A stretch of 64,000 nt of DNA from an uncultured Spirochaetota bacterium (lineage in GTDB: Bacteria > Spirochaetota > Spirochaetia > Treponematales > Treponemataceae), in assembly GCA_944389415.1 (NCBI GenBank), contig CALXMF010000005.1, forward strand, positions 19,798-83,797. The letters are read 5' to 3'. Position numbers and translations under genes: made by a program. The notes below the pieces were generated by a model. It saw only the letters and a program-made list of their open reading frames with translations. It ran no database searches and was not told the origin of the DNA. Below are positions 27,013 through 53,714 of this stretch, in pieces; the stretch's first letter is position 1, and each line of letters starts with the position of its first letter.

Positions 27013-28719
27013 ATGCATAAAAAAGAATCTTCAGTTATACAAAAATTTTTACCATTGCTTACTCACCGCCAGAAAATCGGTTTTATTATTCTTATTTTTA
27101 TGGCAATCCTGTTATCTGTAGTAGAAACAGTTGGGATTTCTGCTATCATGCCATTTATTTCTATCGCATCAAATCCGGATCTAGTTAACCAAAATAAAAT
27201 ATATCACACTGTATACACCTTTTTAAATTTCAAGACACGCAATTCATTTATTATCTTTCTTGGCATAGGTATTATGGTGTTCTATTTTTTCAGAGCTCTG
27301 TACAATGTCTTATACACCTATTTTCTAGCCAAATATTCAAATAGTGTATTTATGCATTTGAGCAGCCGGTTATTCGCTGTTTATCTAAAACAACCGTATA
27401 CCTCGTTTCTGCAACAAAACGCTTCTACCCTCACAAATCATATTATGGGCGAAGCAAATATGACCAGTACTTACCTTCTCAGTTTTTTGCAAATTTTTCC
27501 CGAGGCATTTACTGTCACATTGTTATACATCATTATGCTTATCGCAAATACCAGTATGACACTGATACTGACCACCGTCTTAGCTATTTCAGTCGCAATC
27601 ATAATCAGAGTAATCACCAAAATCAACAGAAAACAAGGCTCAATCCGTTCCGCCGCAAACGATAAATTATACAAGACTCTTGGAGAGGCCTTTGGTAATT
27701 TTAAATTTATAACTCTGCGCGGTAATGATGCCGATTTGCTCACTCGCTTTAATACAATAAATACAAAAAAATCCCGGTCGCAGATCATCAGCACAATGCT
27801 TCAGACACTTCCTCGCTGCATCATGGAAAGCTTCGGTTTTATTATATTAATAGCAGTTATTGTGTATATAGTATGGAAATATCAATCAGCAGAAACAGTC
27901 ATACCAACAGTTTCGCTGTACGCCTTATCCATGTACCGCATTTTGCCGGCTTTGAACAGATCTATGGGATGTATCAGTACGCTTGTTTATAACCAGAAAT
28001 CTATGGATATTGTGCATGCAGACTTATCACTGCCGGTACGGCAAGAAGGAATGGCACCAGTATCTTTTAATCACACTATACGGGCAGAAAATATCTCATT
28101 CAGCTATGTAGAAAATAAAAAGATTTTGCATAAAATCGGACTTACTATTCATAAAGGTGAAAAACTTGCTATAGTCGGCGAAAGCGGCGGAGGCAAGTCA
28201 ACACTCGTTGATCTGCTCATTGGACTGCATCGTCCCGATGAAGGTGCTTTGTACGTTGATGAAACAGAAATCACAAACGACAACATCAGAGACTGGCGCA
28301 GGCACATCGGATATATTCCCCAAACAATCTATCTCTTTGATGGAACTGTAGCAGAAAATATATCTTTTGGCAGTCCGTATGACGAGAAACGAATTGAAGA
28401 AGTCTTAAAAAAGGTATGCCTGTGGGATATGCTGCAAGAACGAGAAGGCCTGCATACCCGTGTCGGAGACGGCGGAGTACAACTGAGCGGAGGACAAAAA
28501 CAGCGAATTGGCATAGCCCGTGCTATTTATACTAACCCGGATATCCTGGTGCTGGATGAGGCTACATCAGCGCTTGATACAGAAACAGAAGCCCAAATTA
28601 TGGAAGAGATATATCAGCTGAGTCAGGATAAAACACTCATCATTATTGCCCACCGGCTGTCAACGATAGAATTATGCGACAGACGGATTGAAATACATCA
28701 CGGAAAGATCAGGACTTAA
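27013..28719 (+). CDS. Fused TMD-NBD ABC exporter (MsbA/PglK-like)
   Basis: Start at MHKKESSVIQKF. Six-TM N-terminal half, Walker A GESGGGKST, signature LSGGQKQR, Walker B ILVLDEATSALD. Confidence 0.9.
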   Translation: MHKKESSVIQKFLPLLTHRQKIGFIILIFMAILLSVVETVGISAIMPFISIASNPDLVNQNKIYHTVYTFLNFKTRNSFIIFLGIGIMVFYFFRALYNVLYTYFLAKYSNSVFMHLSSRLFAVYLKQPYTSFLQQNASTLTNHIMGEANMTSTYLLSFLQIFPEAFTVTLLYIIMLIANTSMTLILTTVLAISVAIIIRVITKINRKQGSIRSAANDKLYKTLGEAFGNFKFITLRGNDADLLTRFNTINTKKSRSQIISTMLQTLPRCIMESFGFIILIAVIVYIVWKYQSAETVIPTVSLYALSMYRILPALNRSMGCISTLVYNQKSMDIVHADLSLPVRQEGMAPVSFNHTIRAENISFSYVENKKILHKIGLTIHKGEKLAIVGESGGGKSTLVDLLIGLHRPDEGALYVDETEITNDNIRDWRRHIGYIPQTIYLFDGTVAENISFGSPYDEKRIEEVLKKVCLWDMLQEREGLHTRVGDGGVQLSGGQKQRIGIARAIYTNPDILVLDEATSALDTETEAQIMEEIYQLSQDKTLIIIAHRLSTIELCDRRIEIHHGKIRT

Positions 28720-28724
28720 TTTTT

Positions 28725-30401
28725 ATGAATATTTTTAATATAAAACATACTTTTACTAAATTTACTATCGGCTGTTGTCTGCTGTCTGCTGCGTTCGCGC
28801 AGGAAGCGTTAAAATCTACAGAAGAGGAATATTACGATTTTCTGTCTATTCAGGGACTCGCGGAACGTCCGACCCTGAATTACCGCACACTATCTGACTC
28901 TGAATGGAAACTGACTGGAGAGGCAGAAGATGGCAATCATGTGTGGGCGGATAATAATCTGGGAACCCGTTTTATCCTGTGGCAGGCGGCAAATCCGGCG
29001 GATAACTGGTTTGTACGGGGCATAGACCAGAGCATTACTATGAAAGTATACGGCCCTGAATGGTTTAACAGCTTTAATACCGCTGCCCCTTACGGTCAGA
29101 ATGACGGCGCGCTCTGGCAGGGACGCGGTTATAATACAAGTCTTACCGGCGGTATCCGCTTTGAGGCATACGGTTTTGAGGCGACATTTAAACCGCAGCT
29201 CAGCTTTAGCCAGAACATGGCGTTTGATATTATGCCTTCCGCCTACGACAGTGAATACGGTTATTTCTGGGGATACAGTAAGAATGTCGGCGTAGACGCT
29301 CCACAGCGTTTCGGTAATAAGCCGTTCTTTACCTATGACTGGGGCGACACGGAAATCCGCTGGAGCTGGCATACATTTACAGTGGGTTTTGGGACGCAAT
29401 CAATCTGGCTTGGTCCGGCATACCTGAATCCCATACTGCACTCAAATAACGCAGCCACATATCCTAAATTTGACATCGGATTACGAAAACAACGAATTGT
29501 TATACCAAAACTCGGCTGGTATCTGGGAGATATTGAATTCCGATTATGGACAGGTTACCTCAGTGAATCTGAATACTTTGATAATGACAGCAGCAATGAT
29601 CATAACATGATTCACGGATTAAGTTTTGCGTACTCGCCCTCATTCCTGCCAGGATTAACTCTTTTTGCAAATAGAACATGTTTGGTAAAATGGGACTGGG
29701 CAAACCTGAAATATATCTGGCCTGCACTAGCAAATACCCATATAGGAGAACAGGGAGCCGGGGAAGATCAGAAAATGTCATTTGGTTTTTCTTGGCTTTT
29801 CCCACAAGTGGGGTTTGAAATATATGCAGAATTAGGTATTGATGATTTCACACCTTCAAACACCTTAGGATTTATCAGATATCCTTTTGACACGATGGTC
29901 TATACCTTAGGATTTGAAAAGTCTTTCGCAATAAATGATTCAAAAAAAATTTATGCACTAATCAATTTTGAATCAAATTTCCTAGAAAAAAATACACACC
30001 GCTCAGGAAGTAATTATACATACTATTTTCATCATCAAATTACACAGGGATATACAAATAGAGGACAATGGTTAGCTGCAGGTATTGGAACCGGAGGAAA
30101 TTCTCAGTATTGTAGTATTTCAGTTATTTATCCTCAAGGTCAAACTTCTTTATTTTTTCATAGATATAATGTTGATAATGATTATGCATATTGGGGATGG
30201 AATCATTTAGATCAATATCGTTATAAAACGAATTTTATAATTGGGATTAAGCAACAGTATTATCTTTTAAGCTCATTAAGTATAAACGGGAGTTTTGTAT
30301 ATGATATGATCATAAACCCATTATATGATGGAACAGTTAATGCTGACGAGTACTTACAACATAACATATCATTATCAATAGGAATAAAATACACCTTATA
30401 G
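28725..30401 (+). CDS. Outer-membrane beta-barrel protein, probably Wzi-family capsule assembly protein
   Basis: Signal peptide, an N-terminal YYDFLSIQGLAERPTLNYRTLS segment resembling the Wzi helical plug, aromatic-rich beta-strand pattern and a C-terminal ...IGIKYTL. The family call is from memory. Confidence 0.55.
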   Translation: MNIFNIKHTFTKFTIGCCLLSAAFAQEALKSTEEEYYDFLSIQGLAERPTLNYRTLSDSEWKLTGEAEDGNHVWADNNLGTRFILWQAANPADNWFVRGIDQSITMKVYGPEWFNSFNTAAPYGQNDGALWQGRGYNTSLTGGIRFEAYGFEATFKPQLSFSQNMAFDIMPSAYDSEYGYFWGYSKNVGVDAPQRFGNKPFFTYDWGDTEIRWSWHTFTVGFGTQSIWLGPAYLNPILHSNNAATYPKFDIGLRKQRIVIPKLGWYLGDIEFRLWTGYLSESEYFDNDSSNDHNMIHGLSFAYSPSFLPGLTLFANRTCLVKWDWANLKYIWPALANTHIGEQGAGEDQKMSFGFSWLFPQVGFEIYAELGIDDFTPSNTLGFIRYPFDTMVYTLGFEKSFAINDSKKIYALINFESNFLEKNTHRSGSNYTYYFHHQITQGYTNRGQWLAAGIGTGGNSQYCSISVIYPQGQTSLFFHRYNVDNDYAYWGWNHLDQYRYKTNFIIGIKQQYYLLSSLSINGSFVYDMIINPLYDGTVNADEYLQHNISLSIGIKYTL

Positions 30402-30524
30402 AACATGATAAATGCTCGATACAAAGCCATTTTTACAATATAGCATTGCCATTTTTCTTGATACAGGGATACATCTTTACTTTTTTCATAAAAAAAATTT
30501 CTTCCTTATTTTTCGTATGCTGTT

Positions 30525-30546: not shown

Positions 30547-30579
30547 AGAAAATTTTATTTGTTATAAAGAGACATTACA

Positions 30580-31491
30580 ATGATAACAAAAAAAACAATT
30601 CCTTTAGAAACCACAATCACATTTGAAACAAAATGTTATGAAAATGATTGGGAATATATATTAAAAGGTTCATACCTAAAAAAAATGATCGATAGATGCG
30701 GGATACAGTTTACTGTACGGCAGCTCATCATAAACAACATAAAAAACAGAGAACTTGTAGAATCTTACGCAAAACGAAAAGTAGCTGAAGGTGTAATAGA
30801 TGTATATTATTTTACAGAAGATACAGAAGAAGAAGTTTTAAATTTTTTTAAGCTCACAAAGGAGTCCTTAGGAAAAGGTTTTGTGTATTCTATATCAGAG
30901 TTTACCGGTATTTATAAATGTAAAACAGATTTCTTACTGCATTTTTCAAGCGACGCCTATTTAACAAAAACGGCAAAAAAATCAACATGGATTTCAGAAG
31001 CGATAGAACAAATGAAAAACAACAATACTTTCATCGTTGCAACCCCATGTTGGAATCATCTGTATTTATCAGCAAAAGCAGAATCATATGGGACGACAGG
31101 GAATTTTTATCTAGCACAAGGTTTTTCAGACCAATGCTATCTGATTCCTGTAAAGATATTTCAGCAAAAAATATATAACGAGAAGCACCCATATTCGGAA
31201 CGTTACCCACAATATGGAGGAGAATTGTTTGAAAAACGAGTCGATTCCTTTCTCCGTACACATGATTACTACAGATTAATCTACAAAAAAGTCTCATATA
31301 TTCACGCTAATTTCCCCAAAACAAAAGCAAAAAAGAAAGCATATATGTTTGTCACAAAAAAATTGGGGAATGAATTTACAACTCTTTTTCGTACACCTTC
31401 CTGTATACATAGATTCTATGATATTATTATATCAGTCGTCAAAACACTCTTTCATCGGTATACCAATATGACACATAAGGAGTTTAATTAA
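30580..31491 (+). CDS. Hypothetical protein, possibly a GT-A-fold transferase
   Basis: 303-aa ORF co-directional within the glycan locus. I recognise no clear signature. Confidence 0.55.
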   Translation: MITKKTIPLETTITFETKCYENDWEYILKGSYLKKMIDRCGIQFTVRQLIINNIKNRELVESYAKRKVAEGVIDVYYFTEDTEEEVLNFFKLTKESLGKGFVYSISEFTGIYKCKTDFLLHFSSDAYLTKTAKKSTWISEAIEQMKNNNTFIVATPCWNHLYLSAKAESYGTTGNFYLAQGFSDQCYLIPVKIFQQKIYNEKHPYSERYPQYGGELFEKRVDSFLRTHDYYRLIYKKVSYIHANFPKTKAKKKAYMFVTKKLGNEFTTLFRTPSCIHRFYDIIISVVKTLFHRYTNMTHKEFN

Positions 31492-31492
31492 T

Positions 31493-32530
31493 ATGGTGAT
31501 TGTTTTTCATTCCAATCAAATTGCAGAAAGAGGAACAGAAACTGCCATAATAGATTATGCCCTTGCAAATGAACAAATTCTAAACAATATATCCATCATC
31601 TCATTTCCTTCATATAAAATACTAAATAAAGAAAGGTACGATTATATAAAATCAAGATTTCAAACGATAGAATACCAAGAGAAAAAAGATCTGCATGATT
31701 TCTTAGTTGCTAATAAAGCCGATCTATTATATATCATAGAAGATGGAGAAGCGTATCCCGATACAGTCGATCTTCTGCCAGAGAAGAGACCTTATAAAAC
31801 ATTTGTTCATGCTGTCTTTTCAACAAAGCGAAAACATGGAGATTTTTATTGCCCTATCTCCAACTATCTAAACAAAGCTTATCATACCCACTACCCGGTT
31901 TTACCACATATTGTTAAACCTTTTAACAATACTACAGCCGACTTGCGTAGAGAATTCTCAATACCAACTACAGCGACTGTTTTCGGAGGTTATGGAGGGA
32001 AAGATAGTTTTGATATACCTTTTGTCCATGCCGCTGTTATTGCTGTTGCCAAAACGAATCCCAATTGCTATTTTCTTTTCATGAATTTTAGGGATTTTAC
32101 AATAACAGAACAGACTAAATTACGTAATATTATCTTTTTGCCAGGTAATACAGATAATTTATACAAAGAAAAATTTATTAATACGTGTGACGCGATGCTT
32201 CACGCAAGAACAGATGGTGAGACCTTTGGACTTGCAGTTGCTGAATTTGCAACAAAAAACAAACCAATTATTACGTATAAAAAACCGTTGTGGTATATGC
32301 CCATCAAACTATTAAAGTGGATTATGCATAAGCGCGAATTTTATCAAACAGCACATTTAATGAATTTAGGTAAAAACGCAATCACATATAGTAATAGTAA
32401 AGAGTTAGTTAAGATTCTTACCAAGTTTAATAAGAACCACATTTCAAAACAAAAGATAAGTAAAAATTTTTTACAATTTTCAGAAGTTAATGTAATGAGA
32501 ATTTTCAATAAAATTATAAGTAATTCTTAA
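31493..32530 (+). CDS. Glycosyltransferase (GT-B fold, GT1/GT4-like C-terminal domain)
   Basis: GETFGLAVAEFATKNKPIITY resembles the E-x7-E region. Confidence 0.65.
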   Translation: MVIVFHSNQIAERGTETAIIDYALANEQILNNISIISFPSYKILNKERYDYIKSRFQTIEYQEKKDLHDFLVANKADLLYIIEDGEAYPDTVDLLPEKRPYKTFVHAVFSTKRKHGDFYCPISNYLNKAYHTHYPVLPHIVKPFNNTTADLRREFSIPTTATVFGGYGGKDSFDIPFVHAAVIAVAKTNPNCYFLFMNFRDFTITEQTKLRNIIFLPGNTDNLYKEKFINTCDAMLHARTDGETFGLAVAEFATKNKPIITYKKPLWYMPIKLLKWIMHKREFYQTAHLMNLGKNAITYSNSKELVKILTKFNKNHISKQKISKNFLQFSEVNVMRIFNKIISNS

Positions 32531-32539: not shown

Positions 32540-33730
32540 ATGGCTAAACTAGTGCTATTTTTTTTAAACAATCCTTTTTATCCAGTTCATTTACAAAAAG
32601 ATGTCGGTCTTTTTCCACTCTACTTACAAAAAAGTTATTTTAATTCTGCTCAAATATTAAAAATCGGGGATAGAAAACAAGAGGATTATCTTTTTCAAGG
32701 AATCAATGTATCAAATCTTTTTATTTATCCTAAATTATACCAACCTGATTGCAAGATCAGCCTTTTTTATGAGTATAAATGTATTTTTAAAAGTTTATGG
32801 TACATATGCACACATCGTGATGTTACACATATAATGATGTTTCACATAAATAGATTCAGTTTATATTTTTCCTTTTTGCTTAAATTTTTCTTTCCTAAGA
32901 TAAAAACATATGTAAAATGTGATACTTCAGCAAAATCCACTACACAATACCCACATTTTAAAAATCCGTCTACAATTAAACAGTACATCAAAAAAAAGAT
33001 GTATGACAGTATCGACTTATTCACTATCGAAGCATTTTCTGCATATCAAGCTCTATATGATAATCCGTTTTTTCATAATAGGAATCTGCATCTTATTCCT
33101 AATGGACTTGATAATAACTGGAGATCATTGAGTTTAAAAAACAAAACAAAAACTATTATTACGGTTGGTCGATTAGGAACATATCAAAAAAATACAGAAT
33201 TGTTCCTAGATGCTATTACAAAACTAAACATTAAAGATTGGATAATTAAATTAATTGGTCCAATCGAAACAGCAGAATATAACTTTCAAAAATACATTGA
33301 TACTTTTTTTGCAGAGCATCCCCATTTAAAACAAAATGTTATATTTTCAGGAGCTATCACTGATCCAACAACACTACAGAAGGAATATGAATCAGCTTCT
33401 ATATTTATCTCCACATCGCGTTATGAAGCTTTTAGCATTGCGTTATTGGAAGCCGCAGGTGCAGGATGTTATATAATAGCAACAAATGTTGGAGCCGCCT
33501 ATGATATAACAAATAATGGAACATTAGGATATCTTTGTAATTATAGTGAAGCATATAATCAAAATGAACAGCTCATACAAGAACAAATAACAAAACAGGT
33601 ACAACAGATTATCGATGGAAACATAAATTTACACATGATTCAAAAGAAGCAAAGCGATTTCATAAATAAACATTTCATGATACAGGATATCGTTCAACAC
33701 CCCTGTTTCAAAGAATGGGTAAACAGTTAA
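32540..33730 (+). CDS. Glycosyltransferase family 4
   Basis: STSRYEAFSIALLEAAGAGCYIIATNVGAA (E-x7-E motif). Confidence 0.8.
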   Translation: MAKLVLFFLNNPFYPVHLQKDVGLFPLYLQKSYFNSAQILKIGDRKQEDYLFQGINVSNLFIYPKLYQPDCKISLFYEYKCIFKSLWYICTHRDVTHIMMFHINRFSLYFSFLLKFFFPKIKTYVKCDTSAKSTTQYPHFKNPSTIKQYIKKKMYDSIDLFTIEAFSAYQALYDNPFFHNRNLHLIPNGLDNNWRSLSLKNKTKTIITVGRLGTYQKNTELFLDAITKLNIKDWIIKLIGPIETAEYNFQKYIDTFFAEHPHLKQNVIFSGAITDPTTLQKEYESASIFISTSRYEAFSIALLEAAGAGCYIIATNVGAAYDITNNGTLGYLCNYSEAYNQNEQLIQEQITKQVQQIIDGNINLHMIQKKQSDFINKHFMIQDIVQHPCFKEWVNS

Positions 33731-33748: not shown

Positions 33749-34561
33749 ATGACCTTTAATACAGGAGAAACATCAGAAACGTTAAGGCAAACATATAATC
33801 CCGATGGAAGCACACTGAGAAAAGCACAATTACGCATGTTGGATATGTTATTATTTTTAGACAAAATCTGTAAAGAAAATGACATTCAATACTTTTTATC
33901 AGATGGAAATCTGCTTGGTGCAGTCAGGCATGGAGGTTTTATTCCATGGGATGATGATATGGACATTATTATTATGGAGAAAGACGCCAAACGCCTAAAA
34001 AAAATCCTACTAACCCAATATAAAGATACACCATATGTATTACAATGCCATCAAACAGATCATAATTATAAACAATTCTGGTATGTGTTAAGAGATCGAT
34101 ACAGTGAATACATACAGGATTCACAAATACATAAAGCAAGAAAATATAAAGGATTACAAGTTGATATTTTTATTTACTCTGATAAAATTATTCCTATCTT
34201 AAAAAAGATAAGCTACCAAATAGTAAAACTATCTAACAAAATGATCGAAAAACAACATTTGAAAGCAGCGGAATTCCTTTTCGCTATTAATAATTTATTA
34301 GTTATACCAATTTTTAAATTTATAAGTCTGTTTAAAATCAATAAAAATGATATCTCTCATACTTACACTGCCAAATGGTACACATCCTTTAAAAAAGACG
34401 AAATTTTCCCGTTAGGCACAATCCAGTTTGAAGGACATACAATTCCTGCTCCCAGAAATACCACATATTACCTGGAGACGTTATTTGGAGCAAATTATAT
34501 GGATTTACCATCAATCGAAAAAAGAGATGCGCACAAAGCAAATATTCTCTTTTATAAATAA
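33749..34561 (+). CDS. licD: LicD-family phosphotransferase
   Basis: LRMLDMLLFLDKICKENDIQYFLSDGNLLGAVRHGGFIPWDDDMDIIIM (LicD nucleotidyltransferase-fold DxD). Confidence 0.85.
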   Translation: MTFNTGETSETLRQTYNPDGSTLRKAQLRMLDMLLFLDKICKENDIQYFLSDGNLLGAVRHGGFIPWDDDMDIIIMEKDAKRLKKILLTQYKDTPYVLQCHQTDHNYKQFWYVLRDRYSEYIQDSQIHKARKYKGLQVDIFIYSDKIIPILKKISYQIVKLSNKMIEKQHLKAAEFLFAINNLLVIPIFKFISLFKINKNDISHTYTAKWYTSFKKDEIFPLGTIQFEGHTIPAPRNTTYYLETLFGANYMDLPSIEKRDAHKANILFYK

Positions 34562-34572: not shown

Positions 34573-35490
34573 ATGCATGTTTCAGTAATTATCATCAGCT
34601 ATAACACAAAAGATTTATTAAAACAATGTTTAGATTCCATTATTACTCATACTACAGATATTGATTATGAAATACTGGTCTCAGACAACGGCTCTACAGA
34701 CGGAAGTATCGAGATGTTATCTCAATACCCTTTTCCTATCCATTTAATTAAAAACAATGAGAATCTTGGGTTTGGAGCAGCAAATAATCGTGCTTTATCT
34801 TATGCAACAGGTAAATATATTTTCTATTTGAACAGTGATACAATTTTGTTAAACAATGCAATAAAACTCTTTTATGACTATTGGGAAAATGCATCACCAG
34901 AATTAGATATAGGTGCGTTAGGAGCAAACCTTTTAAATCAAAGACAGGAAATTATCCACTCATATGCTCAATTTCCTCAAATTAAAACAGAAATCAAGAA
35001 CAAATTACATGCTGTTTACAGAGTACTTAAAATAAATTTTCTATCTCGATTTATACCAGCAAAATTATCAAATACTCCATCAAATTCAGTACATTCTAAA
35101 TATATCGGTCTTGTTGATTATATAACCGGGGCTGATCTTTTTATAAAAAATACACCTTTTGCCCGTTTTGACGAAAGATATTTTATGTACTGCGAAGACG
35201 TTGATTTATCGTATCAATTATATAAACATAACCTTAATAGGTATTTAATTGATGGCCCTCAGATCATCCATTTAGAAGGAGGATCTTCAATCAAAGAAAT
35301 AGACGAAGTAAAGAAATATAAATCTTTTTCTAATATTTATAATTCTATTTCTAAGGTTATCTTTTTTAAAAAAAATAAAAGCCCGTATGTATATATTTTC
35401 ATTCTCAAATGTTGTACAACACTATTGTGGTGTATGCCAAGCTTGTTTCCGCATACAAAGAAATATCTTAAAATTTTATGGAAAATATGA
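34573..35490 (+). CDS. Glycosyltransferase family 2
   Basis: VSVIIISYNTKDLLKQCLDSI...SDNGSTDGS...NSDT. Confidence 0.85.
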   Translation: MHVSVIIISYNTKDLLKQCLDSIITHTTDIDYEILVSDNGSTDGSIEMLSQYPFPIHLIKNNENLGFGAANNRALSYATGKYIFYLNSDTILLNNAIKLFYDYWENASPELDIGALGANLLNQRQEIIHSYAQFPQIKTEIKNKLHAVYRVLKINFLSRFIPAKLSNTPSNSVHSKYIGLVDYITGADLFIKNTPFARFDERYFMYCEDVDLSYQLYKHNLNRYLIDGPQIIHLEGGSSIKEIDEVKKYKSFSNIYNSISKVIFFKKNKSPYVYIFILKCCTTLLWCMPSLFPHTKKYLKILWKI

Positions 35491-39711: not shown

Positions 39712-39731
39712 TTTCAGGATGGTCAGCCAAT

Positions 39732-42170: not shown

Positions 42171-42171
<1 letters not shown>
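40870..42171 (+). CDS. aepX: Phosphoenolpyruvate mutase with N-terminal TagD-like cytidylyltransferase-fold domain
   Basis: AGGAGG RBS. The PEP mutase signature EDKxxxxxNS is present as EDKIGLKKNS. The first 130 aa or so resemble glycerol-3-P cytidylyltransferase (GDDW, TTGISSS) but carry IHPGL instead of HxGH. Confidence 0.85.
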
Positions 42172-45135
<2,964 letters not shown>

Positions 45136-45173: not shown

Positions 45174-47873
45174 ATGGCACATATTTTATATTCAATAATT
45201 ATTTATCCAATTACACTCCTTATAGAAATCATTCTCCAATTTGGTGAAAAACTTTTTAATAATACTGTTATAGCAATTTTAGGTGTAAGTACTGCTGTAT
45301 CACTGTTTTGTTTGCCATTATATATCATTGCTGAACGGTGGCAGCAAAAAGAAAGGGCTCAAATTGCAAAACTTAAACCTAAAGTAGATAAAATAAAAGA
45401 AGTATTTAAAGGTGATGAGCAGTACATGATATTAGCTACATTCTATAAACAAAATCATTATCATCCCTTTTATGCGTTTAGAAATTCCCTTGGATTATTA
45501 ATTCAGATACCGTTTTTCATCGCAGCGTATACGTTCTTATCAAATTACACACCGTTACAGGGGGAATCTTTTTTTGCAATCGCAGATTTAGCAAAGCCTG
45601 ATGCACTCATATCAATAAAAAATTATTCTATCAATATACTACCAATCATTATGACTGCAATTAATTGTTTGGCCAGCGCCATTTATACAAAAGGTCTTTC
45701 CTTGAAAGACAAAATTCAACTTTATGGAATGGCATTCATATTTCTAATTTTATTATATAATTCCCCATCAGGATTAGTTATATATTGGACAATGAATAAT
45801 GTGATATCACTTGTTAAAAACATTTTTTATAAACTCAGAAATCCAAAACAAGTCCTCTATATACTCTGTACAATACTGAGCGTTCTTTTAATTATTTTTG
45901 ATTTATTTATTTTAAATAAGGACCTTTATGATAGAATCATATTAGCATTGATTTTATGCATGATTCCCCTTTTTCCAATTATATCAAAATTATATACATA
46001 TTCACTGAAAACTATATTCACAGAAATAATTAGTTTTTCCCAAAAACGGTTTATCCTTTTTACACTTGCTTCTACGCTTATATTTATACTCATTGGCCTT
46101 AATATCCCTACATCCATTATTGCATCATCCCCTCAAGAATTTTCTTTTGTAGACAAACACTCTTCTCCCCTATATTTTATTTATGTAACCAGTTTACAAG
46201 CATTTGGCTTATTTGTTGTTTGGCCCTCTATATTTTATAGTCTTTTTTCTCCTAAAATAAAAGTATTGATAACAATCTGCATGGTTTTCACAGCTATTGC
46301 AGCAGTAATCAATACATTCGCATTCTCTGGGAATTATGGAATTCTCTCAACAATGTTAACATTTACACAAACACGTGTTTTAAAACCGACAAGTCAAGAA
46401 GCAGTATTAAATATAATATGTATTTGTTTGATAATTAGCATCTGTATTTATTGTTTTTATAAATACAAAAGTAATTTAATTACTTTTATTATGACAATCA
46501 CTTTTATTGCAATATTCATTACATCATTCATTAATATCATCGCTATACAAAAAGGATATACAAACCTAGTAGAAATCAAAAAAGATGTCAATCAAGTAAA
46601 AACAGTCTCTCCTATTTTCAGTCTTTCAAAAACAGGAAAAAATGTTTTTATTATTATGCTCGACAGAGCGGCTAATGGATATGTACCAACTATATTTAAT
46701 GAAAATCCGGAATTATATTCTCAATATGATGGTTTTATATACTATCCAAATACACTTTCTTTCAATGATTACACCCTTATTGGGGCACCGCCTTTATTTG
46801 GAGGATATGAATATACTCCACAGGAAATAAATAAACGAAGTAGCGAGAAATTGAAAGAAAAACATAATGAGTCACTTCTAGTTCTTCCCCGAATCTTTTC
46901 AGAAGCAGGATTTGATACTGTAATCACAGATCCTCCATGGAGTAATTATAGTCTTGTACCTGATGTATCAATTTATAAACCATATCCATCTATTAAACCT
47001 TATATTACTAATCGTACATACACAGATATATGGCTGAAAGAACATGATATAGGAAACATGCAAATCAGAAGTTCTATTTTAGAAAGAAATTTTTTATTTT
47101 TCGGTCTATTGAAAATTTCACCTTTATTCATACGGGATATTATTTATGATGATGGCGCTTACTGGAATTCAGATTCTCAAATTGATGATATTGAATTATT
47201 AATAAATAGCTATTCTGTACTAGATTATCTTCCCAAATTAACAGAGATAAATACTAATACCCAAAATAATACTTTTACATTTATGGTCAATGATCTAACA
47301 CATGAACCTATGCCTCTACAAGCACCGGATTATATTCCGCATGTACCAATAACACAAACCGGTAATACACCCTTTTCAGATGAACCACACTATCCTGTTA
47401 ATGCGGCTGCATTAAAATTGATTGGTAAATGGTTAAAATTTTTAAAAGAAAATAATGTATATGATAATACCCGTATAATAATAACATCAGACCATGGTGC
47501 TAATATTACATCAAAGCAATTTTCTTACCAACAATTTCCGTTTAATCCAGAAACACACAATCCATTATTGTTAGTAAAAGATTTTAATCAGCACTCATCA
47601 GAATTCAATGTACTGAATACGGATTATACATTAATGACAAATGCAGATGTACCAATACTAGCTGTTCAACAAGTGATAAAGAATCCCCTCAATCCTTTTA
47701 CAGGCAAACAATTGACGAGTGAAATAAAACAAGATAAACTGTATGTTGTACATGGAGTTAAATGGACACCAGATGCACATATGGAAAATATATTTAATAT
47801 AAAACCAGAACAATGGTATTCGGTCAAAGATAATATTCTGCAATCAGATAATTGGAAACAAGAGCATCCATAA
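45174..47873 (+). CDS. Polytopic membrane protein: YidC/Oxa1-like N-terminal region plus C-terminal LtaS/sulfatase-like (alkaline-phosphatase superfamily) domain
   Basis: YidC-like: LPLYIIAERWQQKERAQIAKLKPKVDKIKEVFKGDEQ...FYKQNHYHPF and SGLVIYWTMNNVISLVKN. About a dozen hydrophobic segments extend to about residue 460. Then FIIMLDRAANGY, NDLTHEP and IIITSDHG follow, in the order expected for metal and nucleophile motifs. Confidence 0.6.
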   Translation: MAHILYSIIIYPITLLIEIILQFGEKLFNNTVIAILGVSTAVSLFCLPLYIIAERWQQKERAQIAKLKPKVDKIKEVFKGDEQYMILATFYKQNHYHPFYAFRNSLGLLIQIPFFIAAYTFLSNYTPLQGESFFAIADLAKPDALISIKNYSINILPIIMTAINCLASAIYTKGLSLKDKIQLYGMAFIFLILLYNSPSGLVIYWTMNNVISLVKNIFYKLRNPKQVLYILCTILSVLLIIFDLFILNKDLYDRIILALILCMIPLFPIISKLYTYSLKTIFTEIISFSQKRFILFTLASTLIFILIGLNIPTSIIASSPQEFSFVDKHSSPLYFIYVTSLQAFGLFVVWPSIFYSLFSPKIKVLITICMVFTAIAAVINTFAFSGNYGILSTMLTFTQTRVLKPTSQEAVLNIICICLIISICIYCFYKYKSNLITFIMTITFIAIFITSFINIIAIQKGYTNLVEIKKDVNQVKTVSPIFSLSKTGKNVFIIMLDRAANGYVPTIFNENPELYSQYDGFIYYPNTLSFNDYTLIGAPPLFGGYEYTPQEINKRSSEKLKEKHNESLLVLPRIFSEAGFDTVITDPPWSNYSLVPDVSIYKPYPSIKPYITNRTYTDIWLKEHDIGNMQIRSSILERNFLFFGLLKISPLFIRDIIYDDGAYWNSDSQIDDIELLINSYSVLDYLPKLTEINTNTQNNTFTFMVNDLTHEPMPLQAPDYIPHVPITQTGNTPFSDEPHYPVNAAALKLIGKWLKFLKENNVYDNTRIIITSDHGANITSKQFSYQQFPFNPETHNPLLLVKDFNQHSSEFNVLNTDYTLMTNADVPILAVQQVIKNPLNPFTGKQLTSEIKQDKLYVVHGVKWTPDAHMENIFNIKPEQWYSVKDNILQSDNWKQEHP

Positions 47874-47932: not shown

Positions 47933-49171
47933 ATGATAACACTTTTCTTATATATAGACCCAGGAACAGGTAGTATGCTCTTTTCAATTCTGATAGGAGC
48001 TATTGCAACCCTATATTTCCTACTGAAAGCTGTAGTTATAAAAATTAAATTTATGTTAACAGGGAAAGATATTGGAAGAATTCCCCAAACCACTTACTCG
48101 TACGTTATCTACTGTGAAGGCAAACAATACTGGAATTTGTTTACGCCAATTGTAACTGAATTTGAAAAACGACAGATACCTGTTATGTATTATACCTCTG
48201 CTGAGGATGACCCCTTATTGAATAAACAAACTCAGTATATTAAAGCTGAATTTATTGGAAGCGGAAATGCTGCGTTTGCGCGTCTGAATCTGTTAGAAGC
48301 AGATATTGTACTTATGACAACACCAGGTCTGCAGGTATATCAATTAAAAAGATCAAAAAAAGTAAAACACTATGCTCATATTCTACACGCAACCAGTGAT
48401 GCAACTATGTATAAACTTTTCGGTATAGACTATTTTGATTCTATACTATTGACAGGAGAATACCAAAAAAAGGATATCAGACAACTCGAACATCAACGAA
48501 ATATTCCTGAAAAAGAGCTTATCACAATAGGTTGTCCTTACCTTGATGTTCTTGTTCAAAAAATACAAGAACTTTCTGTTGAAAATACACATTTATTTAC
48601 TGTATTAGTATCCCCTTCATGGGGAAGTTCTGCAATTTTAGCTAAGTATGGAGAAAAACTACTTGATCCTCTTGCCAGTAGTGGATGGAGAATTATTATA
48701 AGACCACATCCCCAGTCAAAAAAATCAGAAGTGCAAATCTTGGATCGACTAACAAAGAGATATGAAAACAACAATAATATAGAGTGGGATTTTAATAATG
48801 ACAATATCCTTTCAATGCAAAAATCTGATATTATGATTTCTGATTTTTCTGGTATTATTTTTGATTATATATTTCTATATGATAAACCTGTAATATATGT
48901 AACCCAAGACTTTGATTTGCGACCATATGACGCAGATGATTTGCACCACGAAATATGGCAATTTGAAACATTAAAGAAAATAGGAATTGAACTAAAAGAA
49001 AAAGATTTTCCTTCAATAAAAAAAATTATCGAAGTAACAGCTGATAACGAAAATTTAAGAAAAGCAAGAAGGCAGGCAAAGAATGAGGCATGGCAATATC
49101 AGGGAGAAGGCAGCAAAAACGCAGTTGATTTTCTAGTAAAAAAATATAAAGAAATTGTTAATCAGAATTAA
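47933..49171 (+). CDS. CDP-glycerol glycerophosphotransferase family protein (TagB/TagF-like)
   Basis: N-terminal TM segment. C-terminal motif region SPSWG...RPHP...SDIMISDFSGIIFDYIFLYDKPVIY. Confidence 0.75.
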   Translation: MITLFLYIDPGTGSMLFSILIGAIATLYFLLKAVVIKIKFMLTGKDIGRIPQTTYSYVIYCEGKQYWNLFTPIVTEFEKRQIPVMYYTSAEDDPLLNKQTQYIKAEFIGSGNAAFARLNLLEADIVLMTTPGLQVYQLKRSKKVKHYAHILHATSDATMYKLFGIDYFDSILLTGEYQKKDIRQLEHQRNIPEKELITIGCPYLDVLVQKIQELSVENTHLFTVLVSPSWGSSAILAKYGEKLLDPLASSGWRIIIRPHPQSKKSEVQILDRLTKRYENNNNIEWDFNNDNILSMQKSDIMISDFSGIIFDYIFLYDKPVIYVTQDFDLRPYDADDLHHEIWQFETLKKIGIELKEKDFPSIKKIIEVTADNENLRKARRQAKNEAWQYQGEGSKNAVDFLVKKYKEIVNQN

Positions 49172-49198: not shown

Positions 49199-50281
49199 AT
49201 GAAAATAGCAATAGATTGCAGAATGATAGAATCAAGTGGTATTGGAGTTTTTTTACGAGAAACACTACGATATCTTGTAAAAAGCAGCAATACTTTTATT
49301 CTCATAGGTTCTCAGCAGGTTATATACAAAAATATACCAGAACTCTCTCAAACGACAAACACTTATATCATTGAATGTTCATGTAAACCGTTCTCTGTGC
49401 AGGAAACTTTCATGTTTCCGTCTGCCATTTGCGAACAAATTAACAGGTGTGATATCTACTATACTCCCTTTTTTAATGTTCCAAACGGAATCCAAATACC
49501 CATTTATATAACCATTCATGATATTATTTTTCCTGATATACCTGAACTGACATCTAGATTGGGGTTATTAATACGGATGTGGTTTTACAGACGGGCATAT
49601 AAAAAAGCACAAGGTATTTTAACTGTTTCTCATTTTTCTGAAGAACGCATAAAAGTACATCTGGGCACTCAGAAACCAATCTATGTTGTCTACAGCGCGG
49701 TTGCATCATATCTGGATGAGTATACAGAAGAGGCAAACATACAAAAACAGATTCTCTTTGTCGGGAATATCAAAAAGCATAAAGGACTGGCTATTCTTAT
49801 TCCCGCTTTTAGACAGCTGAGAAAACAATTCCCTGATATAAAACTAGTCATTGTTGGCAGTGCTGAAAATTTCAGAAGTCATGATTCTGCAATTCTCGAT
49901 CTCCAGCACACAGCAGAAACTGATGGAATACATTTTACCGGATACATTAATGATACCGAATTAAGAAAACTATATACAGATTCAGCAGTTCTTGTGCAGC
50001 CATCATTTTACGAGGGCTTTGGGTTGCCGCCTCTTGAAGCAATGTATTGCGGAACACCGGCAATTATTTCTGATATCCCTGTATTTAAAGAAATATATGC
50101 ATCCTATCCGGTAGACTATTTTCAGTGCGGCAATATCTCAGATTTATATGAAAAAATGTATAATTTTTTCAGTAATATATACCCCAAGCGAATTTCTCTC
50201 ACTGACCAACAAAAACAGAAGTATTCTTTTTCAGATAAAGCACAACACATTCTCAATATATTTTCGGAAGGGAAAAAATGA
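49199..50281 (+). CDS. Glycosyltransferase family 4
   Basis: QPSFYEGFGLPPLEAMYCGTPAIISDIPVFKEIY. Confidence 0.8.
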   Translation: MKIAIDCRMIESSGIGVFLRETLRYLVKSSNTFILIGSQQVIYKNIPELSQTTNTYIIECSCKPFSVQETFMFPSAICEQINRCDIYYTPFFNVPNGIQIPIYITIHDIIFPDIPELTSRLGLLIRMWFYRRAYKKAQGILTVSHFSEERIKVHLGTQKPIYVVYSAVASYLDEYTEEANIQKQILFVGNIKKHKGLAILIPAFRQLRKQFPDIKLVIVGSAENFRSHDSAILDLQHTAETDGIHFTGYINDTELRKLYTDSAVLVQPSFYEGFGLPPLEAMYCGTPAIISDIPVFKEIYASYPVDYFQCGNISDLYEKMYNFFSNIYPKRISLTDQQKQKYSFSDKAQHILNIFSEGKK

Positions 50282-51291
50282 TTATAACACAAACACCTTT
50301 CAGAATGTCTTTTTTTGGCGGGGGCACAGATTTTCCCGGTTTTTATCACCAATATGGCGGTTCAGTCATTTCAACCACATTTGATAAATACTGTTATGTA
50401 AATGTCAGACATCTGCCAAGATTTTTTGATTATACTACTGAGTTATGTTATGCAAAAATTGAGCGAGTAACCTCTATAAAAGACATACAACACCCGGCAA
50501 TACGCAACGCAATGGAATATTTGCATATGCATGAACTTAGACTCTCATATGAGGCAGATCTTCCGGCAAGATCCGGGCTTGGCACATCAAGTTCATTTGC
50601 AGTTGGTATGCTCCATGCCTTCTATGCGATGAAGGGAAAATATGTTGATAAAAGGAAGCTGGCTGACGATGCCATTTATCTTGAACGGACTCTCTGTAAT
50701 GAGAAAGGTGGTATTCAGGATCAAATTGCTGCAAGTTTTGGTGGATTCAACCGTATCAATTTTTCTTCGAGTGGATATACAGTTCATCCTATTATTATTT
50801 CTCCAGAACGAAAAGAACAACTTAATAACAGTCTTATGCTCTTCTTTACCGGATTTGCACGGTTTTCATCAGAAATTCAAACAGCAACAGAACAGGCTCT
50901 TCAACAAAAAGATAAAGATAACTTACTCAAAGAAATGTTATCTCTTGTAGATGACGCAGAAAAAATCTTAACATCACATACCGATCTTGATGAATTTGGC
51001 AAATTACTTGATTATACATGGAAACTGAAACGAGGGCTTACCAATAAAATATCTTCAGATACAATTGATATATTATATCAGACTGGAATTGCTGCCGGAG
51101 CTATTGGGGGCAAACTTCTTGGCGCTGGAGGCGGTGGTTTTTTACTTTTCTATGTACCAATAGATAAGAAAGCCGCTGTACAGGAAGCATTGAAAAAATT
51201 GCTATATGTTCCATTTGCATTTGAAGATGCAGGTACTCAAGTTATCCATTATACCCCGGAGATTTATCAGCCGGATGAAAGCAGGGAGTGA
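50278..51291 (+). CDS. hddA: GHMP-family sugar kinase, HddA-like (D-glycero-D-manno-heptose 7-phosphate kinase)
   Basis: ATGA overlap with the upstream gene. MIITQTPFRMSFFGGGTDFP and GHMP motif PARSGLGTSSSF. Confidence 0.7.
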   Translation: MIITQTPFRMSFFGGGTDFPGFYHQYGGSVISTTFDKYCYVNVRHLPRFFDYTTELCYAKIERVTSIKDIQHPAIRNAMEYLHMHELRLSYEADLPARSGLGTSSSFAVGMLHAFYAMKGKYVDKRKLADDAIYLERTLCNEKGGIQDQIAASFGGFNRINFSSSGYTVHPIIISPERKEQLNNSLMLFFTGFARFSSEIQTATEQALQQKDKDNLLKEMLSLVDDAEKILTSHTDLDEFGKLLDYTWKLKRGLTNKISSDTIDILYQTGIAAGAIGGKLLGAGGGGFLLFYVPIDKKAAVQEALKKLLYVPFAFEDAGTQVIHYTPEIYQPDESRE

Positions 51292-51297
51292 ATAAGA

Positions 51298-52599
51298 ATG
51301 AAAGCTGTTATTATGGCCGGTGGTAAAGGTACTCGAATCGCTTCTGTAAATGCGGAAGTACCTAAACCGATGATCCAGATTCTTGGTAAACCAATTCTTG
51401 AATATCAACTTGAAAACCTGAAGGCACAGGGGATTACTGATATAATTCTAGTTGTCGGACACCTTAAACAGGTGATTCAGAATTATTTTGGAGATGGCAC
51501 ACGCATATCGCCCTGCACCAGCAGGCCATTTGGAGTTAATATTAGCTATATAGAAGAAAATGAACCGCTTGGTACTGCAGGCGCTCTGTATTACCTTAAA
51601 AACAGCCTTACAGATGATTTTTTGCTGCTATGCGGAGATATTATTTTTGATATAGATATTGAACGTTTCTATACATTTCATAAACAGCATGGAGCATACG
51701 CAACAATATTTACTCATCCCAATAGTCATCCGTATGACAGCGGAATTATTATTGCTGATGAAAAAGGCTGCGTTCACAATTGGCTGCACAAAGAAGATGC
51801 ACGGACATGGTATAAAAATCGCGTCAATGCCGGTATCCATATTATTTCACCGAATTTACTCAGTAATTTTACGACCCCAATCAAAAAAGATTTAGATAGA
51901 GATATATTAAAGCCATTAATCTCCGAACATCAATTATATTGCTATGACTCACCTGAATATGTAAAAGACATGGGTACCCCAGATCGGTTTTACAGTGTAA
52001 TAGAGGATATTAAAAGCGGCAGAGTACATGCTAAAAACCTTCATAACAAACAGAAAGCTATTTTTCTGGATCGAGATGGAACGATTAATACCTACACTGG
52101 ATTTTTAACAGCACCCGAGCAATTGACACTGCTGCCAGGTGCCGCAGAAGCGATCAGAAAGATAAATGAAAGCGGTTATCTGGCAATTGTAATCACCAAC
52201 CAACCTGTTATTGCCCGCGGTGATTGTACTATTGAAGAATTAAATATTATTCACCAAAAACTAGAAACCATGCTTGGAAAAGAAGGTGCTTATCTTGATG
52301 GGATTTACTATTGTCCGCATCATCCTGAGAAGGGGTTTCCTGGAGAGCGTCCTGAATATAAGATAGAATGCAACTGCAGAAAGCCGAAGCCTGGACTGAT
52401 TTTAGAGGCTGTTCAACATTTTAATATTGATATTCAATCATCATGGATGATTGGAGACAGTCTGACAGACATTAAATGTGGAAAAAATGCAGGGTGTCAG
52501 AGTGCCGGCGTGGGAGAAACACTCTTAAGAGAAAAGGATACTGATTTTCCTGTTTTCAATTCCTTACTGGAATGTATACAACATATTTTACCGGAATAA
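51298..52599 (+). CDS. Fusion of sugar-1-phosphate nucleotidyltransferase (HddC-like) and HAD-IIIA heptose bisphosphate phosphatase (GmhB-like)
   Basis: N-terminal MKAVIMAGGKGTRI. C-terminal FLDRDGTIN, CNCRKPKPG and GDSLTDIKCG. Confidence 0.75.
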   Translation: MKAVIMAGGKGTRIASVNAEVPKPMIQILGKPILEYQLENLKAQGITDIILVVGHLKQVIQNYFGDGTRISPCTSRPFGVNISYIEENEPLGTAGALYYLKNSLTDDFLLLCGDIIFDIDIERFYTFHKQHGAYATIFTHPNSHPYDSGIIIADEKGCVHNWLHKEDARTWYKNRVNAGIHIISPNLLSNFTTPIKKDLDRDILKPLISEHQLYCYDSPEYVKDMGTPDRFYSVIEDIKSGRVHAKNLHNKQKAIFLDRDGTINTYTGFLTAPEQLTLLPGAAEAIRKINESGYLAIVITNQPVIARGDCTIEELNIIHQKLETMLGKEGAYLDGIYYCPHHPEKGFPGERPEYKIECNCRKPKPGLILEAVQHFNIDIQSSWMIGDSLTDIKCGKNAGCQSAGVGETLLREKDTDFPVFNSLLECIQHILPE

Positions 52600-52613
52600 G
52601 GCAGATACATAAT

Positions 52614-53714
52614 ATGAAAGTTGCAATTGTTCATTATTGGTTAGTCAATATGCGTGGTGGCGAAAAAATGCTTGAAGCTCTTCTGGATATTTTTCCTGAA
52701 GCAGACATTTATACTCATGTATATGCACCAGAAAAAATATCTGATAAAATCAAACAACACCATATCTATACGACCTATATTAATTCACTGCCCTTTGCCA
52801 GAAAACTATATCAAAAATATATGCCTTTAATGCCTAATGCGTTAAAAGAACTCAATTTACAAAATTATGATCTCATTATTTCTTCTGAGGCCGGACCAGC
52901 TAAAGGTGTTGTTCCTGCACCAGAGGCTTTTCATATCTGTTACTGTCATTCACCAATGAGATATATTTGGGATATGTATCATACATATTTTCAGAAAGCA
53001 GGTTTTCTAACAAAATTCTTTATGAAAAAACTGGTGCCGTCGTTGCGAATTTGGGATATCACTTCTGCAAATATGGTTGATAGATTTATCACAAATTCAC
53101 ACTACGTAGCACAGCGCATAAGGCGCTACTATAACCGGGATGCTCTAGTTGTGTACGGCCCTGCAGCAATTGAACAATATATCAATATATCGCGAGACCC
53201 ACAGGATTTTTATCTGTTTTTTGGGCAGCTGGTCGGATATAAACGGGCAGATATAGCAATAAACGCATGTTTAAAATCGAATAGAAAACTGATTCTGGCA
53301 GGCGATGGTGCATCGTCCCAAATAAAACAAAAATATAAAAATAATCCGCTCATTACCTTTCTAGGTCGAGTCAGTGATGATGATATCAAAAAACTGTTTT
53401 CGCAGGCCAAAGCACTTCTTTTTCCCGGAATTGAAGATCTCGGGCTTATCCCCATAGAGGCAAACGCAGCAGGATGCCCTGTTATTGCATTTAGACGAGG
53501 CGGAGCGCTTGATACCGTTAAAGAAAATATAACTGGAATCTTTTTTGACCAGCAGACTCCCGAGTCTCTTATAGATGCGCTTGATCGTTTTGAATCATTA
53601 CCACCTGATACATTCGCAGATAGACAGCAATTTACAAATCATGTCCAACAATTTTCACGAGAAGCGTTTATTGAACGGATACAGCAGGTTGTCTCAGAGA
53701 GAAAGCGTATATAG
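52614..53714 (+). CDS. Glycosyltransferase family 4
   Basis: Start at MKVAIVHYWLVNMRGGEKMLEAL. C-terminal FPGIEDLGLIPIEANAAGCPVIAFRRGG. Confidence 0.8.
   Translation: MKVAIVHYWLVNMRGGEKMLEALLDIFPEADIYTHVYAPEKISDKIKQHHIYTTYINSLPFARKLYQKYMPLMPNALKELNLQNYDLIISSEAGPAKGVVPAPEAFHICYCHSPMRYIWDMYHTYFQKAGFLTKFFMKKLVPSLRIWDITSANMVDRFITNSHYVAQRIRRYYNRDALVVYGPAAIEQYINISRDPQDFYLFFGQLVGYKRADIAINACLKSNRKLILAGDGASSQIKQKYKNNPLITFLGRVSDDDIKKLFSQAKALLFPGIEDLGLIPIEANAAGCPVIAFRRGGALDTVKENITGIFFDQQTPESLIDALDRFESLPPDTFADRQQFTNHVQQFSREAFIERIQQVVSERKRI

Follow-up and report, generated by a model that had tools for sequence, protein, structure and literature searches.

The 64,000-nucleotide stretch of DNA analyzed here (the window; C5:19798-83797 of genome G000, from an uncultured, gut-type Treponema of the Treponemataceae) carries at 27013-53714 a 27-kb, operon-like surface-glycan locus of 21 genes. 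The locus is probably the main, strain-variable part of a lipid-linked pathway that assembles its glycan fully and then flips it, with the initiating phosphoglycosyltransferase (PGT) encoded on another contig, C3. The source genome is 2.6 Mb in size, 41% G+C, and 99.9% complete, and its closest named relatives by protein match are 'Ca. Treponema faecavium', T. socranskii, T. saccharophilum, and T. parvum. A preliminary description of this DNA had proposed either an ABC- or PglK-like export route with initiation encoded elsewhere or a noncanonical assembly scheme. The PglK-like exporter, the single PGT on another contig, and the synteny in relatives support the former; the latter is not needed for initiation or polymerization, where the absence of the enzymes is explained by ordinary means, and stands for the steps after flipping, for which no ligase, oligosaccharyltransferase, or Wza was found in the genome.

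The first gene of the locus encodes an ATP-binding cassette (ABC) exporter with fused transmembrane and nucleotide-binding domains (Pfam ABC_membrane and ABC_tran at 27013), as had been described. Its best PDB match, by a wide margin, is C. jejuni PglK (5c73, E = 1.4e-132, residues 10-567 against 3-561, ~39% identity), followed among solved structures by eukaryotic ABCB proteins. Against the NCBIfam models it scores 539 bits for PglK and 301 bits for MsbA; because the former value lies below the PglK equivalog cut-off of 1000, we call the protein PglK-like rather than PglK. The start at 27013, an internal ATG of open reading frame (ORF) 26869, aligns with PglK residue 3, and Arg86, Arg260, Arg302, and Arg309 of PglK are all aligned to Arg in the exporter (HMMER alignment). 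These four residues of the outward-facing cavity are reportedly needed for flipping in PglK. On this likeness, we propose that the exporter is a PglK-like flippase for a lipid-linked oligosaccharide; since a PglK-type flippase moves the finished, lipid-pyrophosphate-linked oligosaccharide, this would account for the absence of both Wzx and Wzy.

Exactly one gene in the genome carries a Bac_transf domain: it encodes a WbaP-type PGT of 483 aa (C3:19732-21183) and is translationally coupled to a gene for a 500-aa exported protein of Omp85 fold (the pair spans C3:18233-21183; L004:10001-12954). Two genes carry the Glycos_transf_4 domain and are, by their motifs, MraY (C16) and a WecA/TagO-like protein (C9:37166-38209) with the WecA-type motif NLIDGVDAL. 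Both the C3 PGT gene and the C9 WecA-like gene sit among housekeeping genes, outside any glycan locus. These results of the genome-wide PGT search support an initiator that is "missing" from the locus and encoded elsewhere in the genome, as the preliminary description suspected.

The tie between the locus and the C3 PGT comes from relatives, in which orthologues of window genes run directly into the orthologous PGT gene. This is seen on two metagenomic Treponema contigs that carry homologues of the YidC/LtaS-like fusion protein encoded at 45174. On L048 the order is Ugd, GT8, further genes, the fusion, TagF-like, CT-Ppm, Ppd, PntC-AEPT, three GT4 glycosyltransferases (orthologues of those at 39702, 52614, and 49199), and Bac_transf. 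L047 reads GT2, GT4, fusion, TagF-like, further genes, fusion, two GT4s, Bac_transf, Omp85-like, and then GcpE and V-ATPase genes; its Bac_transf protein is 55% identical to the C3 PGT, its Omp85-like protein is 36% identical to the C3 PGT partner, and the GcpE/V-ATPase flank is that of the C3 PGT in the window's own genome. Across both contigs, orthologues of Ugd, GT8, the fusion, TagF, the phosphonate genes, GT4_360a, GT4_380, and GT4_360b lead into Bac_transf. The PGT is preceded, at a distance of one or two genes (immediately in L047, L048, and G113), by orthologues of the GT4 at 49199 (43-53% identical), and orthologues of the GT4 at 52614 (40-62% identical) adjoin the PGT in relatives. 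In genome G144 (contig C7), the Wzi, PglK-like, LicD, phosphonate, fusion, TagF-like, PGT, and Omp85-like genes all fall within 27 kb, and G135 shows the same frame with Wzx replacing the ABC exporter.

A survey of 151 genomes of the family found the Wzi-like protein in 42, the PglK-like exporter in 20, and the Omp85-like protein in 130. Wzi-like and PglK-like genes are neighbors in 7 of the 10 genomes having both; where they share a contig with the Omp85-like gene, the Wzi-like gene lies 7-45 kb from it in 14 of 19 cases and the PglK-like gene at most 38 kb from it in 7 of 9. Of 20 genomes sampled from 9 genera, 13 have a PGT homologue upstream of the Omp85-like gene and in the same orientation, immediately adjacent to it in 10 and 0.7-2 kb away in 3. 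The usual architecture is Wzi (with a PglK-like exporter or Wzx), variable genes, conserved GT4s, PGT, and Omp85-like. The PGT pair is detached from the rest of the locus in the window's genome, and also in G066 (by 143 kb), G087, G113, and G027. The right-hand junction of GT4, PurA-like gene, and RNase HII is common to the window and a sister species (L077), which places the separation of the PGT before the origin of this species; the PurA-like (DUF3276) protein, 125 aa, is encoded at 53791-54168, directly after the locus and on the same strand.

Two other ways of starting the chain have to be set against these data. In one, a GT4 would begin the glycan on diacylglycerol, as the monogalactosyl- and digalactosyldiacylglycerol synthases do, and the exporter would flip the finished glycolipid in the manner of MsbA, with no need for a PGT, polymerase, or ligase. 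GT4 is the family of diacylglycerol glycosyltransferases, to which the GT4s of the locus belong; the locus has no PGT, and the genome has no lipid A pathway, ligase, or oligosaccharyltransferase. This route nevertheless sits poorly with an exporter that is PglK-like and keeps the four arginines for flipping a pyrophosphate-linked oligosaccharide, and with the joining of the same locus type to a WbaP-type PGT across the Treponemataceae, which would be pointless if the chain were primed on diacylglycerol; we find it hard to credit. In the other, the pathway would be as we propose, except that the orphan WecA/TagO-like protein (C9:37166-38209) would initiate it, much as in wall teichoic acid synthesis, with a TagO-like start, TagF-like extension, and ABC export. 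A second Glycos_transf_4 gene does exist beside MraY and has the NLIDGVDAL motif, TagF-like and LicD proteins lend the locus a teichoic-acid flavor, and T. socranskii has CDP-ribitol synthase-like and TagF-like genes beside Wzi and PglK-like ones. The WecA-like gene, on the other hand, lies among unrelated genes with no synteny to glycan loci seen, and it is the WbaP-type PGT that is joined to orthologous loci in many relatives, so that a WecA-like start appears very unlikely.

In the ORF listing, the locus is an unbroken series of 21 genes rather than the 22 first counted. They are all on the plus strand with the short gaps or overlaps previously described: junctions range from -28 to +85 bp, except for one 178-bp gap (30401-30580) after the second gene, and every minus-strand ORF of at least 100 aa in 27013-53714 is nested inside a plus-strand gene. 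The G+C content is 34.1%, as against 41.2% for the rest of the window, and reaches its minimum of 29-32% at 30.6-35.5 kb, a block of glycosyltransferase genes. Scans for promoters and terminators, run at the two locus ends, gave nothing exceeding shuffled sequence. The genes, with the evidence for each, are as follows (TM, transmembrane).

27013..28719, plus strand: PglK-like fused exporter, 568 aa (Pfam ABC_membrane and ABC_tran; NCBIfam PglK; PDB 5c73)
28725..30401, plus strand: Wzi-family outer-membrane protein, 558 aa, N-terminal signal peptide (PF14052, 42.2 bits, cut-off 30.1)
30580..31491, plus strand: unclassified soluble protein, 303 aa, probable glycosyltransferase or tailoring enzyme (0 TM segments)
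31493..32530, plus strand: probable GT-B glycosyltransferase, 345 aa, weak (Glycos_transf_1, E = 9e-4, below cut-off; 0 TM segments)
32540..33730, plus strand: GT4 glycosyltransferase, 396 aa (Glycos_transf_1 / Glyco_trans_1_4, E = 1e-19 to 5e-20)
33749..34561, plus strand: LicD-family phospho(no)transferase, 270 aa (PF04991, E = 3.8e-33)
34573..35490, plus strand: GT2 glycosyltransferase, 305 aa (PF00535, E = 5.5e-27)
35478..36653, plus strand: GT4 glycosyltransferase, 391 aa (Glycos_transf_1 and Glyco_transf_4)
36626..37528, plus strand: GT2-like glycosyltransferase, 300 aa (PF00535, 29.5 bits, cut-off 23.3; 0 TM segments)
37554..38720, plus strand: UDP-glucose 6-dehydrogenase (Ugd), 388 aa (all three UDPG_MGDP_dh domains)
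38722..39711, plus strand: GT8-like glycosyltransferase, 329 aa from ATG 38722, longest ORF from 38620 (Glyco_transf_8, 25.0 bits, cut-off 24.3; Nucleotid_trans)
39702..40784, plus strand: GT4 glycosyltransferase, 360 aa (Glycos_transf_1, E = 1.5e-25; orthologues in related loci)
40870..42171, plus strand: cytidylyltransferase-phosphoenolpyruvate (PEP) mutase fusion (CT-Ppm), 433 aa (CTP_transf_like and PEP_mutase, E = 6e-54)
42171..43301, plus strand: phosphonopyruvate decarboxylase (Ppd), 376 aa, start overlapping the preceding stop (TPP_enzyme_N, TPP_enzyme_C)
43294..45135, plus strand: fusion of PntC and 2-aminoethylphosphonate (AEP) transaminase (PntC-AEPT), 613 aa (NTP_transf_3 and Aminotran_5; PDB 6pd1, E = 5.9e-249)
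45174..47873, plus strand: fusion of a YidC fold, ~7 further TM segments, and an LtaS/PbgA-like ectodomain, 899 aa (60KD_IMP, E = 4e-24; Sulfatase, 24.3 bits)
47933..49171, plus strand: TagF-like CDP-alcohol phosphotransferase, 412 aa (PF04464, Glyphos_transf, E = 2.6e-11)
49199..50281, plus strand: GT4 glycosyltransferase, 360 aa (Glycos_transf_1, E = 1.3e-31)
50278..51291, plus strand: GHMP sugar kinase, HddA-like, 337 aa (GHMP_kinases_N, GHMP_kinases_C; NCBIfam HddA, E = 1.9e-39)
51298..52599, plus strand: HddC-like sugar-1-P nucleotidyltransferase fused to a GmhB-like heptose bisphosphate phosphatase, 433 aa (NTP_transferase and HAD)
52614..53714, plus strand: GT4 glycosyltransferase, 366 aa from ATG 52614, longest ORF from 52572, last gene of the locus (Glycos_transf_1, E = 5.6e-25)

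Nine glycosyltransferases are thus supported by Pfam (five clear GT4, one weak GT1-type, two GT2, one of them weak, and one GT8-like) and one more is probable; with the two phospho(no)transferases, this is consistent with the "about 11" of the preliminary description. The Pfam/NCBIfam scans likewise back its Ugd, its Wzi-like protein, whose PF14052 score exceeds the Pfam cut-off, and nearly all of its other assignments. ORF 30580 has no match in Pfam, NCBIfam, or PDB; its 863 homologues are labeled "hypothetical," and one source terms one of them a glycosyltransferase. Ppd is called at its 376-aa length on a contig 99.4% identical to the window.

No ORF of 27013-53714 has a Bac_transf or Glycos_transf_4 domain, and by Pfam/NCBIfam together with hydropathy no gene of the locus qualifies as Wzx, Wzy, ligase, Wza/Wzc, or PGT, in agreement with what had been noted before. 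A Wzx/Wzy-dependent locus would hold a MOP-family flippase and a polytopic polymerase; this one does not, and matches to Polysacc_synt occur elsewhere, e.g., on C9. By the hydropathy count, the ABC exporter and the 899-aa fusion are the sole polytopic products of the locus, which excludes a Wzx, Wzy, or ligase among the unclassified ORFs. Three candidates for a Wzy, ligase, or PGT were rejected: ORF 30580 (0 TM segments, no PGT domain), ORF 36626 (0 TM segments, weak GT2 match), and the fusion at 45174 (a YidC fold plus an alkaline-phosphatase-superfamily fold); none of the three makes the pathway conventional.

In the proposed pathway, the WbaP-type PGT (C3:19732-21183) would put the first sugar phosphate onto undecaprenyl phosphate, which we infer to be the carrier, and the 9-10 cytoplasmic glycosyltransferases of the locus would extend the chain. 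The GT4s at 49199 and 52614 probably make its conserved inner part, since their orthologues sit just upstream of the PGT in relatives. Ugd would give UDP-glucuronic acid, and the HddA-like kinase, the HddC-GmhB fusion, and a remote GmhA-like gene would together give nucleoside diphosphate-heptose. Ppm, Ppd, and PntC-AEPT would make CMP-AEP, from which LicD would transfer the AEP to the glycan, and the TagF-like enzyme may add a CDP-activated alcohol phosphate, e.g., glycerophosphate. The PglK-like exporter would then flip the finished oligosaccharide whole, for which reason neither Wzx nor Wzy would be needed. On the periplasmic side, a phosphodiester- or phosphonate-linked group may be added or relayed by the fusion through its outward-facing LtaS-like domain. 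The outer membrane would be the destination of the product, and the Wzi-family barrel, with possibly the PGT-coupled Omp85-fold barrel, would act there.

Several observations weigh against this reading. Besides the exporter's score below the equivalog cut-off, the C3 PGT is assigned from synteny in relatives and not from anything in this genome, and the orphan WecA-like gene could be the initiator instead. Pfam annotation also reveals a second glycan locus, of Wzx type, at C9:58075-67174, which is cut by the contig end and contains a MOP flippase, a pyruvyl transferase together with an F420-type oxidoreductase, an acyltransferase, a GT32-like protein, and a GT4. Because this locus needs an initiator too, the exclusive assignment of the PGT to the window locus is weakened, and the C9 locus could be the true client of the C3 PGT. 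After flipping, neither partner known for a PglK-type flippase is found: the 99.9% complete genome has no STT3/PglB oligosaccharyltransferase and no Wzy_C protein of the WaaL, PglL, or TacL type. No GT-C-like protein was found among 10 large polytopic proteins scanned, all of them transporters or unmatched, in a hunt for a ligase or oligosaccharyltransferase that did not cover ~50 smaller polytopic ORFs or the LCP and PMT_2 families. There is also no Wza in the genome (no Poly_export match above cut-off), which leaves the end of the pathway as a gap, and the known lipooligosaccharide (LOS) of T. denticola is without heptose (PMC3776326), so that the product here would differ from it. Elsewhere in the genome, the mini-contig C31 (4.7 kb, 29% G+C) encodes at 1024-3263 a GT2 and a protein of 8 TM segments that matches no family and is possibly a Wzy.

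What the flipped glycan is attached to can be approached from T. denticola, for which published work reports no lipopolysaccharide pathway. The LOS in its outer membrane lacks lipid A, is anchored by diacylglycerol (PMC3776326, PMC3285142), and has been termed functionally lipoteichoic acid (LTA)-like (PMC3776326). A locus feeding lipopolysaccharide O-antigen was rejected, as the genome has no LpxC and no WaaL. By analogy with the T. denticola LOS, the final acceptor is probably a diacylglycerol-anchored glycolipid, and the likely end product is a diacylglycerol-anchored glycoconjugate of that LTA-like type. Such an anchor would be consistent with a transfer of the kind known from pneumococcal LTA, in which the chain passes from a polyprenyl carrier onto a glycolipid; the ligase family usual for this transfer is absent from the genome by the Wzy_C search. 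Candidates for attachment and outer-membrane delivery are the fusion and the Wzi-like and Omp85-like barrels; for the acceptor step and for delivery, the fusion paired with its TagF-like neighbor, and the Omp85-like partner of the PGT, are as yet unstudied candidates.

The tailoring modules bear on what is attached. PntC-AEPT (43294) matches T. denticola Tde1415 (PDB 6pd1) over its full length, a protein for which AEP transaminase and CMP-AEP synthase activities have been demonstrated, and LicD-like genes occur with PntC phosphonate clusters (PMC6697681). All five activities of the AEP pathway (Ppm, Ppd, AEPT, PntC, and LicD) are encoded in the locus, and LicD is likely the transferase of AEP from CMP-AEP onto the glycan. 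In the heptose module, the best NCBIfam matches are HddA, GmhB, and HddC, all below their equivalog cut-offs (HddA, E = 1.9e-39, far under its cut-off; GmhB model, 162.8 bits against 178), and a GmhA-like SIS_2 gene lies outside the locus, on C10. Judging from these genes, the product is probably an oligosaccharide with glucuronic acid (from Ugd) and heptose, which would probably also carry AEP and a CDP-alcohol-derived phosphate from the TagF-like enzyme.

The AlphaFold2 (AF2) model of the 899-aa fusion (predicted local distance difference test score, pLDDT, 81.8) shows a YidC-like five-helix core, ~7 further helices, and an ectodomain. The N-terminal part matches PF02096 (E = 4e-24) and TIGR03592 (88.6 bits, cut-off 84.3) and resembles YidC 6al2 at 23% identity in Foldseek; a separate housekeeping YidC is encoded on C1, so an insertase function of the fusion is not implied. 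Foldseek matches of the ectodomain are PbgA, LtaP, LtaS, and MCR-1, the top one, PbgA, not being an enzyme. In a sequence alignment, made without superposition, D497, T534, H710, and D773-H774 are invariant in 31 homologues, which fits an active phosphotransferase. No publication on a YidC-sulfatase fusion turned up in the literature searches. In one metagenomic Treponema glycan locus (L046:4963-18337), three fusion paralogues (901, 903, and 909 aa) are present, and the place of the phosphonate genes is taken by a class V aminotransferase and a 167-aa cytidylyltransferase that stands alone.

The TagF-like gene adjoins the fusion in every context seen (the window, L046/L047, L048, L077, and G144), with or without PglK-like or Wzi-like genes nearby. 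This raises the possibility that the locus is a mosaic in which a PglK/Wzi oligosaccharide system merely shares a strand with an independent fusion/TagF-like/phosphonate module, which would by itself move a phosphate- or phosphonate-linked head group across the membrane through its YidC-like part and decorate any surface glycan or lipid. The three paralogues in L046 and the sister species, which keeps the fusion and TagF without the heptose cassette, would suit such independence. The tight packing of all genes on one strand and the recurrence of the whole set together in G144 speak for a single system, and no lipid carrier is known for such a head group. We consider a mosaic possible, with considerable doubt; it is moreover compatible with the assemble-then-flip pathway and not exclusive of it.

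The PF14052 match of the Wzi-like protein spans residues 214-466, the protein has no significant direct sequence match to any PDB structure, Wzi included, and its homologues are always located in variable glycan loci of Treponema. The PGT-coupled Omp85-like protein has no Pfam match by sequence; its AF2 model (pLDDT 88.5) has one POTRA-like domain and a 16-stranded barrel, with Foldseek matches to BamA, TamA, and FhaC (E = 1e-10 to 3e-13). It is unusual for a glycan initiator to be linked to an Omp85-family barrel, and literature searches found no paper on Treponema Wzi/PglK loci. A lineage-specific route to the outer-leaflet glycolipid or glycan of the Treponemataceae, which lack lipid A, could be built on these parts. 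After flipping by a PglK-like exporter or Wzx, a lipid-pyrophosphate-linked oligosaccharide would be handed to its anchor and to the outer membrane by components without a known counterpart, with the fusion and TagF-like protein as periplasmic transferase or phospho(no) head-group carrier and the PGT-coupled Omp85-fold and Wzi barrels as an outer-membrane station. We offer this tentatively and think it rather unlikely.

The assemble-then-flip pathway most resembles the C. jejuni pgl system (PglC, glycosyltransferases, PglK, and PglB) and the H. pylori Wzk O-antigen route, in which, as in this locus, soluble glycosyltransferases build the oligosaccharide on a lipid pyrophosphate and a PglK-type half-transporter flips it whole, with no Wzx or Wzy. 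It differs from them in having no PglB/STT3, WaaL-type ligase, or lipid A, a PGT that is of the large WbaP type and encoded on another contig, and an additional Wzi-family barrel, YidC/LtaS-like fusion, and TagF-like enzyme. With the Wzi of E. coli group 1 capsules the Wzi-like protein shares the PF14052 match and a gene at the head of a surface-glycan locus; in contrast, there is no Wza/Wzc partner here (Wza sought genome-wide, Wzc in the locus), no Wzy in the locus and hence no Wzy dependence, and the Treponema gene accompanies both ABC-type and Wzx-type loci. Teichoic-acid machinery (TagF/TarF, LicD, and LtaS/LtaP) shares the CDP-alcohol phosphotransferase, LicD-type head-group transfer, and LtaS-fold ectodomain, whereas the present organism is diderm, its exporter is PglK-like rather than TagGH or TacF, the membrane part joined to its LtaS-like domain has a YidC fold in place of the five helices of LtaS itself, and, unlike pneumococcal LTA synthesis with its TacL ligase, no TacL-like Wzy_C ligase was found in the genome. 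The T. denticola phosphonate cluster Tde1413-1415 (Rice et al. 2019, PMC6697681) has orthologous CT-Ppm, Ppd, and PntC-AEPT, with LicD-like and glycosyltransferase genes nearby; here, the phosphonate module forms part of a defined export locus. The pathway type is therefore known, and the treponemal version of it is new, with its Wzi-like head, PGT-Omp85 tail, fusion/TagF-like module, no recognizable ligase, and no lipid A.

In the literature searched, the genes for the outer-membrane glycolipid ("LOS") and other surface glycans of treponemes that lack lipopolysaccharide have not been defined. The data offer a concrete gene set, namely, a variable locus with Wzi-like and PglK-like (or Wzx) genes at its head and a conserved PGT and Omp85-like pair that closes the locus in most relatives, and they place the remaining steps at glycan attachment and delivery to the outer membrane. 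In treponemes of the gut, rumen, and mouth, surface glycans probably serve as antigens and as targets of phages or the immune system, a role that a strain-level cassette swap in this locus fits.

That swap is seen on L078, a contig of the same species from another sample, which is 99.4% identical to window 35440-57873 and unrelated upstream: a GT8-family gene stands in place of the GT2 at 34573-35490, with the breakpoint at ~35440, inside the low-G+C block. At least 24 metagenome contigs encode an identical Wzi-like protein, and the gene order is the same on two, among the matches listed. Sister species L077 has PntC-AEPT, the fusion, TagF-like, GT4, PurA-like, and RNase HII genes in window order and is without the GT4 at 49199 and both heptose genes, which makes the heptose cassette an insertion in this species. 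Related species carry quite different sets of glycosyltransferases behind their conserved Wzi-like gene. This variation is the pattern of a serotype-type locus. In T. socranskii, a locus with Wzi-like and PglK-like genes (L028:17473-20184) encodes an IspD-SDR fusion (CDP-ribitol-synthase-like) and a TagF-like protein and represents a further form of this locus type with a teichoic-acid flavor.

At the left edge of the locus, directly upstream of the PglK-like gene, window 26165-26770 holds a DUF6290 antitoxin-like ORF (26165-26506) followed by a small ParE-toxin-like ORF. The two are probably a toxin-antitoxin pair, and ParE is called on the identical contigs L079 and L080.

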